NCBI GenBank assembly: GCA_000146045.2
Contig: BK006947.3
Location: forward strand, 720,334 to 784,333
Length of the DNA: 64,000 bases
Reading direction: 5' to 3'
DNA from: TPA_inf: Saccharomyces
Lineage: Eukaryota
In this document: positions 24,027 to 64,000 of the stretch, piece by piece
How positions within the stretch are numbered: position 1 is the first letter of the stretch
How the letters are laid out: each line of letters opens with the position of its first letter
Made by a program: the position numbers and the translations under genes
Notes under the pieces: model-generated
What the model saw: only the letters and a program-made list of their open reading frames with translations
What the model was told of the DNA's origin: nothing
Database searches by the model: none

Positions 24027-25010
24027 CTAACACCTTTTTTTCCTGAGCCAAATAAGCGGTGGAATTGAAACAGCTACCAAAATCATACCAAATCCAACCG
24101 CAATTGAAAGCCCCAATCTTGTGCCATAAAGAGCTGCTAATACAATCGGTGCCACCAGTTTACCAATCCCAGAGATTGCTCCAATTGAAGGCATCAACTG
24201 GACCTTGAGTTTGGGGTCGATGTACATGGAAAAAAGGGCTGGAATGCTCGAAGCCAAAAAGTTGTACCCTAACAATGTAATCGACATCCCAGCTGAAAAA
24301 AATATACCAGAATTTGTGGGTGGCATTGATTTATGCTTCAAGGCTTCGGATGCTCCAATCATAAAAGCTTGTCCCAGCAATGAAACAAACAATGCAAAGA
24401 TGGACAGAAAAACTTGACCGCTGTACAGCGAATCTTTTTTCTTTACCTCAACGGTCTCACTTCCAGTTGTATCTGACTCTTCTAATCCGCCATCTTTGGC
24501 TCTGCCGCAGGAGCACCCGACGTTTATTAACTTTGGAGCGAAATAGCTTCCAGTCACACCAAGTATAGATGCGACCATAAACGCTATGCCTTGAAACTTG
24601 GTGTCCCAGTTAACGTGGAGCGTCAGGAATAGTGGCATAAAATAAACTACTTCGCTCATAATAAATGACGATAGGAACATGCTCCATAGTAAAATCAAGC
24701 AGGAGATGAGTTTTTTTCTTTCGACTCTAAAAAATTGTTTCAGAGCACTGAAAAGGCTATTTTCCGAATTTGTAACTTTAACCTCAGGATTTTCCAGAAC
24801 GACAACTAATAAAAGGCATACTGCAAGAATTATGAAACTGGAGGCAAATGTCGGTGCATTGTAAGAGGCAATGCGATACCCTTTAATTTTAAAATCGCAA
24901 TATCCAAAAAATATGACAATTAATTGTGCCAACGCCATGAAGATACCAGCCGCTGCTCGATAAATTGATAGAAGCTTGAAAACGATACCCCTATCTTGTG
25001 CAATTGACAT
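24027..25010 (-). CDS. PUL3: MFS-like (monocarboxylate-transporter-like) membrane protein, 327 aa from the first ATG; apparently 5'-truncated (see findings).
   Basis: The track ORF starts at a TTG (25245-25247). The first in-frame ATG is at plus 25008-25010 (MSIAQDRGIVFKLL...). Polytopic throughout. Confidence 0.7.
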   Translation of the reverse strand: MSIAQDRGIVFKLLSIYRAAAGIFMALAQLIVIFFGYCDFKIKGYRIASYNAPTFASSFIILAVCLLLVVVLENPEVKVTNSENSLFSALKQFFRVERKKLISCLILLWSMFLSSFIMSEVVYFMPLFLTLHVNWDTKFQGIAFMVASILGVTGSYFAPKLINVGCSCGRAKDGGLEESDTTGSETVEVKKKDSLYSGQVFLSIFALFVSLLGQAFMIGASEALKHKSMPPTNSGIFFSAGMSITLLGYNFLASSIPALFSMYIDPKLKVQLMPSIGAISGIGKLVAPIVLAALYGTRLGLSIAVGFGMILVAVSIPPLIWLRKKRC

Positions 25011-26609
25011 GATGTAACTGAACACTATAGCACCAGAAGCAGATGCTGCACCACATATAATACGCCCACCGAGAAGGGTGTTTAGCGACACTGCACCGCC
25101 GCATGAATACAAAAAATTACCCACAAAGGATAAAAAGTAAAGCCCCACTATTACCCATTTAATGGACCCAAGAAAAGCAGCAATATCCCCAATAATGAAT
25201 GAAACAAAAACTTGAACTGCTGCAGAAATGGCTTGAATTCTGAACAAGAATTTGTCCGGATTGGTTTCTCCGTTCTCTAAATTGTTAGCATACTAGTTCA
25301 TTGAAATTATCTTAGATTTACATTAACACTTACTTCTTTGATGTAGTCAACCACACTTGAGAGATATACACAGGAGTCGAAACTGAATTGGACAGCTATC
25401 AAAATTACAGCCAAGTATTTCAAAAACATGTGTTTCTTGACACCTAAGATTTTTTTCATTTTAATTTATTGTACCACCGTCGAGTGAAATGGATGGATTT
25501 GTAATGCAATTGAGATACAATTAAGAAGAACGAAAGAGTACTTGACAACTAGAAAGTAATGTTAACTGATCTTTTATATGATGATTATTTATTGACGGCG
25601 ATTCTTTTCCAGATTAGGAAATTTTGTTCCGCTTAGAATGGGATAGGCTTGTTTGGGCGCTATACTTCTGTATCAAAATAGTAAAATCAACTTATTTTAG
25701 TAATAGAAGAGAACAGTAGGCGTTTGGTAATTCTAATTACCTAGACTGTCCCCCATTTCCAGACAGCTGTCCCATATTTTTTTGAGATTCCGACGTCGAA
25801 GCGAAAGACTAGAAGAATAAGTAAAGTGGTCCTTTGTAAGCATAAAGACAAAGGCATGTGAGAAAAGTAAGTGTCTTCGCGATTCGCCGTTGTAAATATG
25901 TATCAGCTTTTTTTACTGCCTTTTCCTGGCGGATCACAGTAATGTATTTTTTTTTTTATATAATTCGAGCTCTACACTCAAGCATACATATATAGAATAG
26001 CTCAGTTTTAATGGGCTTTCTCGAGAACTATTCACCCAGAAGGATATCCTGAGCCTTATATTTAGATGTAACTTAGTAAAGTGAGAGTATTATGAATAAC
26101 TTTTGAAGCTAACAAAATATCAGAAATTAAACTTCATTCAAGAATGTATTTATCTAGAAACTGGTCTTTGGCAAATGGCTCCGATGGCACACATGCAATG
26201 TTCTTGGTAAAAACTAATTTATTATTAGGCCAGTACAGAATAAAAGTTGTCATAAGAAAACTTCATTACATTTTATCTCCTCTGGCAAGTATCCAAATTC
26301 GAAAACCTCAGAAACCAGCGTTCCACCTAAAGTTTGTTTGCCCGTATGTTAAAACAGTAGCTGCCAAGTCACTTGAGTTTGAAGAATAATCTGATGCTTT
26401 TTACATAGAGGTCTATTAGGCTCTTTACTTTGTAAGCATCTCGACTTAAAAAAAAAATCTATTGTTTTTACGGGCATCGCTGAAAAACTGTGTCTGTTCT
26501 CTTTGATGCTGTCATCTAAGATTCAATTAAAGTCGACCATCAAGTTCCCTTAATAATATCCCTTGTGAGAGCTTAATCTAAAACTACAAAAGCGTTCGCA
26601 ACAAGCAGT

Positions 26610-28433
26610 ATGGACAGATCTAAGGACGCTAGAAAGAGATCTATTAGTTTGGCCTGTACTGTGTGTAGGAAACGAAAGTTGAAGTGCGATGGGAACAAGC
26701 CATGTGGAAGATGTATAAGGCTAAATACACCAAAAGAATGCATTTATAATATTGATAAAAGGAAAGACAAGAGAAAAATCAAAAACGGGTCGAAGGTTTT
26801 TTTATTCAAGAATAATACTATCGATAACGGGAATAACTCTATACTAGAGAACAAAGGACTAAATGAAGACCTTTCTTCTCATATATATGAGAAAGAAGCG
26901 CCAAAATTCGATTCAGATATTGATATATCAAGATTTGGCACAAATGATGCTGTGATTTTTAATAATGACGGGTGGGACACTTCTCTTCCGATCGATTTTG
27001 ATTTCGATGAGTTTAACACTGAGACAACAGATTTCGATGACTTTTTAAAACTATTAGGCGATAATTCACCTTCAAAGGAACAAAAAAGTCTTTCCTATTC
27101 ACCTACTGCTACAGGCTTAAGCGGTGTGGTTAAAGAAACTGAGAGCGAAGATAACGCTCCTACGAGGTCTCGGCTAATCGATGTCTTGTTTGAGAACAAG
27201 CTTCACTCCGTACCAGGAATATCAAAATGGCATCTATATGAGCTGGAATCCCAATACCCAAATTTGGAATGTACAGAAGGAAATAGTGATGAAAAGTTTT
27301 TACTTTCAACTGTATTGTGCCTGGGGTCGTTGACCATACGAAAAAGGGAACTATTGAATCATTCGAACATAGACAATCGTCCACTTTTGCCGGAGAATAG
27401 TATTTCAAAACTGACCACTGATGCTTTTAAGTACTATAATGCTGCGAAAACGCTTGTTCCCGACTTGTTATCTCATCCCACAATCGATGGATTTTGCGGC
27501 CTCGTTCTAATGGCAAATTTCATGACGATGATGATATCCTTAGAGCACCAATTATATTTGAGTATAAATGCTTTACAACTTGCTGTGGCTTTAAACTTGA
27601 ACAACAATACAAAATGCAAGGAATTACTTGAGTCGAACAGCGACGGAATTGGTGTGATCTTGCTTTTTTGGAACATTTGGTGTTCTTCTTGCATGTTGGC
27701 AACAATTCATGGAAAAAATCCTTTTATCACTTTGGAACAAATTACAACACCTCTGCCGTGTGAAATATCCCCCCGCAATAAAACTAATAAACTTTTGATA
27801 GATTTCATGCAAATCAGAATCAAGCTAGCCACTCTACAAAGTAAGATTTTTCAACGGCTATATACTTCCAGCACCGCAAACGAGGTACCATTCGTAAACT
27901 TAGAAAGAGAATTTGAGGAGGTTTCACTCCAGATTACCAGGTTAAAAGGCTTTCCGATATTCGAAGAACATCTTTTTTACAGGAGCAGAGTCTTAATGTT
28001 AGAGCTATCATGTTTAAGAGCTCAAGCTTCTTTTCTATTATATCGTCCGTATCTGATCACTGGAGAATCCTTACAAGCAGTAACCATGGCAAAATCAATA
28101 ATTCACGAAATATGGAGTCAATACACTAAACAGTTTCCCGATAACGAAAAGGAAAGGCATGAACGTTTGGATTGGAATTTTTGTTATCCTTTAAGAACAG
28201 CGTCACTGACATTATGTATTTCATGTATTATACTCCTAAGGTATAAGCAGGTGGTGCAGTTCCTTAAAGGTACTGAACTATTTGAATACATTCTAGCATT
28301 GGAAATATTGCAAGATTTAGTTCAGGTACTTCCTATTGAACAAAACCTTATTGATATAATCAAATATCCGATCAGTCCAGTACAGCTGAGTGGTGATAGC
28401 TTTGTCGAATTTTGGGGTCGCATACTTTACTAA
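26610..28433 (+). CDS. PUL4: Zn(II)2Cys6 binuclear-cluster transcription factor, 607 aa.
   Basis: ATG verified; N-terminal CTVCRKRKLKCDGNKPCGRC zinc cluster. Confidence 0.85.
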   Translation: MDRSKDARKRSISLACTVCRKRKLKCDGNKPCGRCIRLNTPKECIYNIDKRKDKRKIKNGSKVFLFKNNTIDNGNNSILENKGLNEDLSSHIYEKEAPKFDSDIDISRFGTNDAVIFNNDGWDTSLPIDFDFDEFNTETTDFDDFLKLLGDNSPSKEQKSLSYSPTATGLSGVVKETESEDNAPTRSRLIDVLFENKLHSVPGISKWHLYELESQYPNLECTEGNSDEKFLLSTVLCLGSLTIRKRELLNHSNIDNRPLLPENSISKLTTDAFKYYNAAKTLVPDLLSHPTIDGFCGLVLMANFMTMMISLEHQLYLSINALQLAVALNLNNNTKCKELLESNSDGIGVILLFWNIWCSSCMLATIHGKNPFITLEQITTPLPCEISPRNKTNKLLIDFMQIRIKLATLQSKIFQRLYTSSTANEVPFVNLEREFEEVSLQITRLKGFPIFEEHLFYRSRVLMLELSCLRAQASFLLYRPYLITGESLQAVTMAKSIIHEIWSQYTKQFPDNEKERHERLDWNFCYPLRTASLTLCISCIILLRYKQVVQFLKGTELFEYILALEILQDLVQVLPIEQNLIDIIKYPISPVQLSGDSFVEFWGRILY

Positions 28434-63694: not shown

Positions 63695-64000
63695 TGTTAG
63701 GGTAGTGTGTGGGTGTGGTGTGTGTGGGTGTGTGGGTGTGGGTGTGTGGGTGTGGGTGTGGTGTGTGGGTGTGGTGTGTGGGTGTGGTGTGGGTGTGGTG
63801 TGTGGGTGTGTGTGGGTGTGGTGTGGGTGTGGTGTGGTGTGTGGGTGTGGGTGTGGGTGTGGTGTGTGTGGGTGTGGTGTGGGTGTGTGGGTGTGGGTGT
63901 GGTGTGTGGTGTGTGTGTGGGTGTGGGTGTGGGTGTGGTGTGTGGGTGTGGGTGTGGTGTGTGGGTGTGGTGTGTGGGTGTGTGTGGGTGTGGTGTGGGT
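63695..64000 (+). repeat. Telomeric TG1-3 repeat tract (chromosome end; the G-rich strand runs 5'->3' toward the end).
   Basis: About 300 bp of irregular GTGTGGGTGTGGTGTG repeats running to the window end. Confidence 0.95.

Follow-up and report, generated by a model that had tools for sequence, protein, structure and literature searches.

Deletion of YNR062C (PUL3) from Saccharomyces cerevisiae, in the S288C-derived deletion collection, makes cells more sensitive to pulcherriminic-acid producers; pul3-delta strains also fail pigment and halo assays, and the full-length PUL3 gene of Kluyveromyces lactis complements them (PMC12342472). The existence of a phenotype in this background implies that a working transporter is made from the S288C allele. 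The introns of S. cerevisiae have been surveyed repeatedly, and a 2025 re-annotation study recognizes 285 real ones, YNR062C appearing in it solely on account of the function newly assigned to it. No yeast intron shorter than 52 nt is known (PMC4712674), annotated introns use [U/C/A]AG acceptors, GAG not being among them (PMC8496845), and the shortest natural distance between branch point and 3' splice site (BP-3'SS) in budding yeast is 10 nt, with Prp18 acting as the ruler that enforces the minimum (PMC10711555). Here we examine YNR062C in a 64,000-nt window of chromosome XIV (contig BK006947.3, positions 720,334 to 784,333; coordinates below are those of the window unless stated otherwise), where the reference annotation shows a protein of 327 amino acids (aa). 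We propose that PUL3 is a two-exon gene whose intron is absent from the S288C reference annotation and whose product is most likely a 457-aa protein with 12 transmembrane (TM) helices, and we put the probability of this reading at roughly 0.88. The case is carried by the anatomy of the intron, the reading frame that its removal restores, the conservation of its position and signals, purifying selection on the coding sequence upstream of the annotated start, and the completeness of the resulting fold.

The proposed gene model

On the minus strand, the main YNR062C frame is open without interruption from a TAG at 25295-25293 to its stop at 24029-24027. The first 225 codons of this frame contain a single in-frame ATG, at 25010, which is preceded by 94 ATG-free codons, and the 327-aa translation from that ATG is an exact match to NP_014460.3 (UniProt P53748), the Pul3p of S288C. 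An original prediction, made from the letters of this DNA alone, had drawn attention to the 94 open codons; all of its sequence facts about them were reproduced, and the stretch does read like a membrane protein. It had also described a 40-codon ORF (open reading frame) just upstream in another frame (MFLKYLAV...NLR, then stop). The end of that ORF is indeed the TAA at 25309-25307, but its start is not at 25429: the real first ATG is at 25459, 10 codons farther 5', for a total of 50 codons (MKKILGVKKHMFLKYL...). ATG 25459 is the first ATG 3' of the TATA box described below, and a start at this position is kept in the sister species; the second Met (25429) is not kept in S. eubayanus.

Read 5' to 3', the upstream frame is closed by its TAA (25309) before the main frame is opened by its TAG (25295), and two more main-frame stops lie farther 5'. 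The two ORFs thus do not overlap, there are stops in both frames between them, and consequently no single indel or ribosomal slip can fuse them; the 1-nt frameshift by which the original prediction joined them has to be abandoned. The same layout bears on programmed ribosomal frameshifting. The frames are one position apart, yeast has +1 frameshift genes, and the 2025 re-annotation study supplies a precedent in YJR112W-A, where an intron was re-read as a frameshift site. However, the frames offer no window of overlap in which a ribosome could slip, so that the stop codons exclude such an event, and the sole CTTAGG-like string, at codons 4-6, lies a long way from the junction and in the wrong register. 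We regard this as the least probable of all the explanations weighed here.

Removal of 59 nt between the two ORFs gives the corrected model, complement(join(24027..25274, 25334..25459)). With an offset of +720,333, this would place the exons at 744,360-745,607 and 745,667-745,792 of chromosome XIV, and the intron at 745,608-745,666. The parts of the model are as follows.

25334..25459, minus strand: coding part of exon 1, 42 codons, MKKILGVKKHMFLKYLAVILIAVQFSFDSCVYLSSVVDYIKE, encoding TM1.
25275..25333, minus strand: proposed phase-0 spliceosomal intron of 59 nt, excision of which restores a single 457-codon ORF.
25328..25333, minus strand: 5' splice site GTAAGT.
25284..25290, minus strand: branch-point sequence TGCTAAC, in which the A at 25285 is the branch A, 48 nt away from the donor.
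25277..25279, minus strand: competing UAG, 2 nt upstream of the GAG site and 8 nt past branch A, specific to S. cerevisiae; its use would remove a 57-nt intron.
25275..25277, minus strand: proposed productive 3' splice site GAG, 10 nt past branch A, the sole frame-restoring AG.
24027..25274, minus strand: coding part of exon 2, 415 codons plus stop, encoding TM2-TM12.
25008..25010, minus strand: annotated start codon, M131 of the full protein, in TM4; a Thr-to-Met variant of the S288C lineage.

Across the intron, the sequence reads ...ATC AAA GAA, GTAAGT GTTAATGTAAATCTAAGATAATTTCAATGAACTAGTA TGCTAAC AATTTAGAG, AAC GGA GAA.... Two AGs follow the branch site, and only removal of 25333-25275 yields the single 457-aa ORF. 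The junction is then ...ATCAAAGAA/AACGGAGAA..., with the spanning string GACTACATCAAAGAAAACGGAGAAACC (AAAGAA/AACGGA). Excision of 57 nt, to the first AG (UAG), gives AAAGAA/AGAACGG and the spanning string GACTACATCAAAGAAAGAACGGAGAAACC; the frame shifts, and a stop is reached after about 45 codons.

As a 5' splice site of a U2-type intron, GTAAGT carries G1, U2 and G5. GUAAGU can pair along its full length with the 5' end of U1 small nuclear RNA, and an A-to-G change at position 2 of the branch site retains a G-U wobble with U2. TGCTAAC is near UACUAAC, and its branch A, at 48 nt from the donor, lies beyond the roughly 45 nt of the positional rule quoted in PMC6726248. A PUL3 RNA that retained the intron would encode a 50-aa peptide consisting of TM1 and 8 further residues (25307-25459, minus strand).

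Conservation of the proposed intron

When the spliced protein was used as a tblastn query, exon 1 was found in S. paradoxus (41/41 aa identical) and S. kudriavzevii, in each case out of frame with exon 2. All four Saccharomyces species compared have an exon 1 of 126-129 nt, then an intron, then exon 2; each intron has two or three stops in the exon-1 frame, and splicing gives ORFs of 458, 459 and 458 aa in S. paradoxus, S. kudriavzevii and S. eubayanus, respectively. Annotated or recognizable introns are present at the same codon boundary in four more distant genera.

S. cerevisiae: 59 nt, donor GTAAGT, branch site TGCTAAC, acceptor GAG.
S. paradoxus: 58 nt, donor GTAAGT, branch site TGCTAAC, acceptor AAG.
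S. kudriavzevii: 58 nt, donor GTAAGT, branch site CACTAAC, acceptor AAG.
S. eubayanus: 57 nt, donor GTAGGT, branch site TACTAAT, acceptor AAG.
Komagataella pastoris: annotated 54-nt intron, same boundary, GTGAGT...TACTAAC...AAG.
Metschnikowia pulcherrima: 64-nt intron, same boundary, GTATGT...AACTAAC...TAG.
Candidozyma auris: 52-nt intron, same boundary, GTACGT...AACTAAC...TAG.
Lachancea quebecensis: intron at the same boundary, with the annotated donor 9 nt downstream of the homologous GTGAGT.

The homologous introns of the seven other species are 52-64 nt long, and their 5' splice sites are either identical to that of S. cerevisiae or changed at positions 3 and 4 only. Among the Saccharomyces species, the CTAA core of the branch site is invariant (4/4), and the distance from branch A to the acceptor is exactly 10 nt in every one, with the S. 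cerevisiae GAG aligning with the AAG acceptors of its three relatives. The interior of the intron, by comparison, diverges by substitutions and by 1-6 gapped columns, and contains non-triplet indels and stops. Across the eight species, the distance from branch point to acceptor is 8-10 nt and total length 52-64 nt, so that PUL3 appears to contain a conserved "minimal" intron. In K. lactis, PUL3 is a continuous ORF of 1383 nt without an intron, which indicates intron loss, and removal of the S. cerevisiae intron gives one ORF that is colinear with this intronless homologue.

Within S. cerevisiae, the 59-nt intron is identical in 8/8 further assemblies. The 457-codon spliced ORF was checked in seven of these and is present in all; the eighth shows no difference from S288C anywhere in the 2,984-nt locus. 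Apart from codon 47, the segment is the same in S288C and the other assemblies. Codon 47 itself (25262-25260) is Asn in S288C and Asp in the seven diverged assemblies and S. paradoxus, Asp47Asn being the derived state.

These comparisons also address the suggestion that the allele is a decaying gene, in which a strain-specific indel split a once-continuous ORF. In its favour are two ORFs close together in different frames and an annotated product that is truncated. Nevertheless, the split layout is found in 9/9 S. cerevisiae assemblies (S288C and eight others) and in the three other Saccharomyces species, splice signals occupy the segment that separates the ORFs, purifying selection acts on both parts, and the stops between the non-overlapping frames stand in the way of a simple repair. 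A strain-specific frameshift pseudogene was consequently rejected, and we give the frameshift allele hardly any credence. The comparative evidence argues instead that PUL3 contains a deeply conserved minimal spliceosomal intron, an explanation that replaces those of frameshift and decay. The alternative offered with them, that the gene is "expressed in an unusual way", holds good only insofar as splicing is uncommon in S. cerevisiae.

Selection and the annotated start

Non-synonymous relative to synonymous substitution (dN/dS) was estimated by the Nei-Gojobori method for each part of the gene.

Exon 1, S. cerevisiae against S. paradoxus: 0.02 (8 synonymous and 1 non-synonymous differences).
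Exon 2, the 88 codons 5' of the annotated ATG, S. cerevisiae against S. paradoxus: 0.08.
Annotated ORF, S. cerevisiae against S. paradoxus: 0.17.
All regions, against S. kudriavzevii and S. eubayanus: 0.07-0.19.

These values point to purifying selection on the coding parts 5' of the annotated ATG, which in the closest comparison is at least as strong, over the 130 upstream codons, as that on the annotated ORF. The annotated start is a derived variant of one lineage. Codon 131 is ATG in S288C and one identical assembly; in the other assemblies with a readable codon it is ACA or ACG (Thr). Residue 131 is T or S in all orthologues, and gene models P0001, P0034, P0035 and P0039 read YITS there. 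The 327-aa reference model was made possible by this Thr131-to-Met polymorphism of the S288C lineage, which by luck yields a long ATG-initiated ORF, and the 327-aa reference protein is an artefact of ORF calling.

It could still be argued that the 327-aa protein from ATG 25010 is the true product and that the upstream ORFs are a leader or a separate small ORF: this is the present reference annotation, and one strain annotation does list a 50-aa ORF separately. Yet the supposed start codon is Thr in other strains and Thr or Ser in orthologues, the upstream codons are constrained as proteins are, and the product would begin at the end of TM4, without TM1-TM4, and fails the Pfam MFS_1 threshold. 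We find this explanation scarcely believable.

The predicted spliced protein

Splicing as proposed gives a protein that scores 41 bits against Pfam MFS_1, the major facilitator superfamily (MFS) family, for which the gathering cutoff is 33.4; the 327-aa annotated protein has no Pfam match. The nearest full-length relatives of the 457-aa protein carry the name Pul3p. They include those of K. lactis (460 aa, 63% identity over 99% coverage) and Komagataella pastoris (456 aa, 68% identity), and there are further full-length relatives in K. dobzhanskii, Lachancea and Metschnikowia. Against the K. lactis, Komagataella, Metschnikowia and C. auris proteins, its identity is 63-68% across 98-99% of the length. 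In the multiple alignment, the exon junction (DYIKE/NGETNPDKF) is gapless to all relatives, and K. lactis reads ...QYVKECGSDDPENY... at this point. The only gap columns are due to three extra residues in the L. quebecensis model, which are dropped if the homologous GTGAGT is chosen as the donor. Exon 1 aligns to the N-termini of all full-length orthologues, which begin about 10 residues before its YLAV and not at the equivalent of the annotated Met (M131, or M80 as first numbered).

An AlphaFold 2 (AF2) model built on the orthologue alignment (pLDDT 80.6, pTM 0.80) predicts 12 long helices, in keeping with the two six-helix bundles of the superfamily, and a hydropathy scan concurs. TM1 corresponds to residues 2-28 and is encoded by exon 1, whereas M131 falls at the end of TM4. 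Foldseek matched solved full-length MFS structures (NorA, MFSD10, sialin, VMAT2 and GLUTs) over about 450 columns. The 457-aa product is therefore modelled as a complete 12-helix MFS fold, from which the 327-aa annotated product would lack TM1-TM4, and, given this fold, a functional Pul3 would be expected to require the N-terminal exons. The original prediction fares well here: it had proposed that the annotated ORF is truncated at its N-terminus, that the upstream ORF encodes the missing TM1, and that the real product has about 460 aa and 12 TM helices, and the model agrees on each point.

Promoter and flanking genes

Two elements upstream of exon 1 bear on where the gene begins.

25571..25578, minus strand: TATA box TATAAAAG, 112-119 nt 5' of ATG 25459, kept in S. 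paradoxus and S. kudriavzevii.
25596..25631, minus strand: 36-bp palindrome CGGAACAAAATTTCCTAATCTGGAAAAGAATCGCCG, of the form CGGA-N8-TTCC-N6-GGAA-N8-(T)CCG, just upstream of the TATA box.

The 111-nt leader between the TATA box and ATG 25459 is free of ATGs, and there is an A at -3 of this ATG. The palindrome is nearly invariant in the alignment of the four Saccharomyces species, and K. lactis, Komagataella and Lachancea have the same architecture 100-170 nt 5' of their PUL3 start codons. In the comparison loci, the element is at 2657 in S. paradoxus (L001), 2639 in S. eubayanus (L002), 2427 in S. kudriavzevii (L003) and 1368 in L. quebecensis (L008), and at L004:2844 and L005:2885. Its inner pattern, TTCC-N4-9-GGAA-N3-12-CCG, has one other match in the 64-kb window, near position 550. 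Together, the conserved palindrome and the TATA box place the promoter upstream of exon 1, and the palindrome may be a binding site for a Zn-cluster regulator such as Pul4. We suggest that transcription begins downstream of the TATA box (25578-25571) and the palindromic element, that translation would initiate at ATG 25459, that exon 1 (TM1) would be joined to exon 2 (TM2-TM12) by excision of a minimal 59-nt U2-type intron, and that the product would be a 457-aa, 12-TM MFS transporter, the orthologue of K. lactis Pul3.

The divergent neighbour of PUL3 in the window is a 607-aa ORF at 26610-28433. In the Saccharomyces and Komagataella loci, PUL3 likewise has a divergent neighbour, of the Zn_clus/Fungal_trans type, an arrangement that represents PUL3/PUL4 linkage, and the flanking genes in the sister species encode a Zn-cluster factor, a MARVEL protein and a ferric reductase. 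TG1-3 telomeric repeats close the window (63700-64000), which therefore takes in the extreme right arm of chromosome XIV, and PUL3 is about 39 kb from the telomere.

Public annotations and alternative intron borders

Public models of PUL3 orthologues disagree with one another, most of them have the 5' end wrong, and those of S. cerevisiae strains use at least three intron borders.

S. cerevisiae S288C, 327 aa: start at the polymorphic ATG 25010.
Other S. cerevisiae strains, 463 aa: intron of 41 nt with AACTAG at its end, which adds YANNLE.
Other S. cerevisiae strains, 453 aa: YANNLE insertion, start at the second Met (MFLKYL...).
Other S. cerevisiae strains, 450 aa: intron running from a GTGTGG donor to a TTTAG acceptor.
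Other S. cerevisiae strains, 435 aa: intron with GTATAT as its donor.
Other S. cerevisiae strains, 217 aa: translation from a Met farther downstream (MFLSSF...).
One S. cerevisiae strain, 50 aa: the upstream ORF, entered as a hypothetical protein of its own (QHB11440.1).
S. paradoxus, 419 aa: start codon taken from within the intron.
S. eubayanus, 404 aa: start within exon 2.
S. kudriavzevii, 334 aa: start farther downstream in exon 2.

None of these models equals the 457-aa protein, and its exact sequence was not found in a collection of 15 billion proteins. The 463-, 450- and 435-aa models amount to an alternative in which the intron is real and its borders lie elsewhere. They are in GenBank for many strains, and all preserve the frame. 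The 41-nt intron, however, is below the 52-nt yeast minimum and leaves TGCTAAC in the exon; its junction string is GACTACATCAAAGAATATGCTAACAAT, the six residues that it adds (YANNLE) are found in no orthologue, and its acceptor is missing in S. kudriavzevii and S. eubayanus. In the 435-aa and 450-aa models, either VYLSSVVDYIKE or SVVDYIKE is lost, stretches that the intronless K. lactis gene keeps, and the donors are without G5 or without consensus. Borders of this kind are, in our view, very improbable.

We found no discussion of an intron in YNR062C/PUL3 in the searchable literature, a search outside which Krause et al. 2018 falls. The intron thus appears to be unreported in that literature, and the reference catalogue, with about 285 introns, does not contain it. 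One RNA-seq intron survey explicitly discarded GAG acceptors, which would hide exactly the PUL3 junction, and PUL3 is probably poorly expressed in standard media.

The probable GAG acceptor

Position -3 of the intron is G in S. cerevisiae alone. The ancestral AAG has become GAG, a change that created a UAG 2 nt upstream (UAGAG); the sister species have the AAG acceptor and no AG upstream of it. Judged by the usual rule for a 3' AG (YAG, at 10 nt or more), the frame-restoring AG is exactly at 10 nt but is a GAG, and the UAG is at 8 nt. We infer that GAG is the acceptor, since the 10-nt minimum imposed by Prp18 would exclude the UAG. GAG at +2 of a YAG is known to be usable, and is favoured by an exonic A at +1 and +2 (PMC10711555); exon 2 of PUL3 starts AAC. 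It is most likely, as far as sequence can tell, that GAG is used productively at the conserved position, possibly with some UAG use or with some intron retention that is degraded by nonsense-mediated decay (NMD).

Several points weigh against the intron as we read it. GAG is outside the acceptor motifs of annotated yeast introns, the better-looking UAG 2 nt upstream would break the frame, and the annotated acceptor of C. auris is at 8 nt from branch A. The pair of donor and branch-point motifs is not significant alone: about 1.3 such pairs are expected by chance per 64-kb window on both strands, and the PUL3 intron is the one observed. A YNR062C/PUL3 intron was not in the supplements of Talkish 2019, Schreiber 2015, Hooks 2014 or Roy 2023 when these were searched by gene name, or, for Talkish 2019, Schreiber 2015 and Roy 2023, also by the deduced chromosome XIV coordinates. 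Moreover, we infer splicing in vivo from comparison of sequences. On the other side, chance does not account for the exact placement of the intron, for the frame that its removal restores or for its presence across eight species.

The intron might alternatively be real and yet compromised by the A-to-G change at -3, with splicing mostly to the UAG, or retention, leading to an out-of-frame, NMD-prone mRNA, and with PUL3 in S. cerevisiae a hypomorph heading to loss or a gene that is throttled. In favour of this idea, the UAGAG arrangement is restricted to S. cerevisiae, GAG is a disfavoured acceptor, S. cerevisiae has reportedly lost the biosynthetic genes PUL1 and PUL2, and the acceptor annotated in C. 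auris is at 8 nt. However, deletion of PUL3 from S288C-background cells produces a clear phenotype (PMC12342472), AGAG and an intact 457-codon ORF are fixed in all nine S. cerevisiae assemblies, dN/dS of PUL3 is still low, and both the Prp18-enforced minimum and the A-rich start of exon 2 favour GAG. We consider a compromised intron unlikely.

Returning to productive use of GAG, we offer a stronger form of this proposal only tentatively, with the odds somewhat against it: that PUL3 may stand alone among standard yeast genes in needing, for its productive mRNA, a GAG 3' splice site, one at the 10-nt ruler minimum and in competition with a UAG that breaks the frame, its ancient minimal intron having been overlooked in the best-annotated of eukaryotic genomes through low expression, filtering of GAG acceptors and a fortuitous start codon. 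Were GAG the acceptor, PUL3 would be a natural in vivo reporter of 3'-splice-site fidelity, unproductive splicing and NMD might throttle the amount of Pul3 in a species that does no more than "cheat" on pulcherrimin, and the intron would be ancient and minimal, retained in several Saccharomycotina lineages and lost in Kluyveromyces.

Significance and comparison with known systems

Work based on the 327-aa reference would inherit its error, and this includes structure predictions, domain calls, N-terminal tags and ORF-only expression clones; S. paradoxus, S. kudriavzevii and S. eubayanus would likewise be affected wherever homology is transferred to them. The corrected model would bring one more real, conserved intron into the catalogue of about 285, which is small and has been studied intensively, and would provide a natural substrate for the study of 3'-splice-site choice, in which GAG competes with UAG and a 10-nt with an 8-nt ruler distance. 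The conserved palindrome is, in addition, a candidate cis-site for the PUL regulon.

With the K. lactis gene, PUL3 of S. cerevisiae shares the PUL3/PUL4 pair, the upstream palindromic element and gapless colinearity across the exon junction; K. lactis differs in that its PUL3 is intronless and its biosynthetic genes are kept. The introns of K. pastoris, M. pulcherrima, C. auris and L. quebecensis are alike in phase (0), boundary, length (52-64 nt) and distance from branch to acceptor (8-10 nt), but their acceptors are YAG or AAG and most of their branch points fit the consensus. Short introns of S. cerevisiae itself, such as that of MATa1 (52 nt), are also GT-AG introns of near-minimal length with a CTAAC branch site and a 10-nt BP-3'SS distance; PUL3 differs from them in its GAG acceptor, its UGCUAAC branch variant and its GUAAGU donor. 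The closest parallel for the acceptor is found in the YAG-AG "slippage" sites of prp18-delta cells (Roy et al. 2023, PMC10711555), where a GAG also lies 2 nt after a YAG and exon 2 starts A-rich. In that study, however, it is the YAG that is normally used and the GAG that is aberrant, whereas in PUL3 the GAG would be productive and at the conserved position, with the YAG too near the branch point. The PUL3 intron would be an instance of a known mechanism and not a new one, and its particular twist is a GAG acceptor at the ruler minimum.

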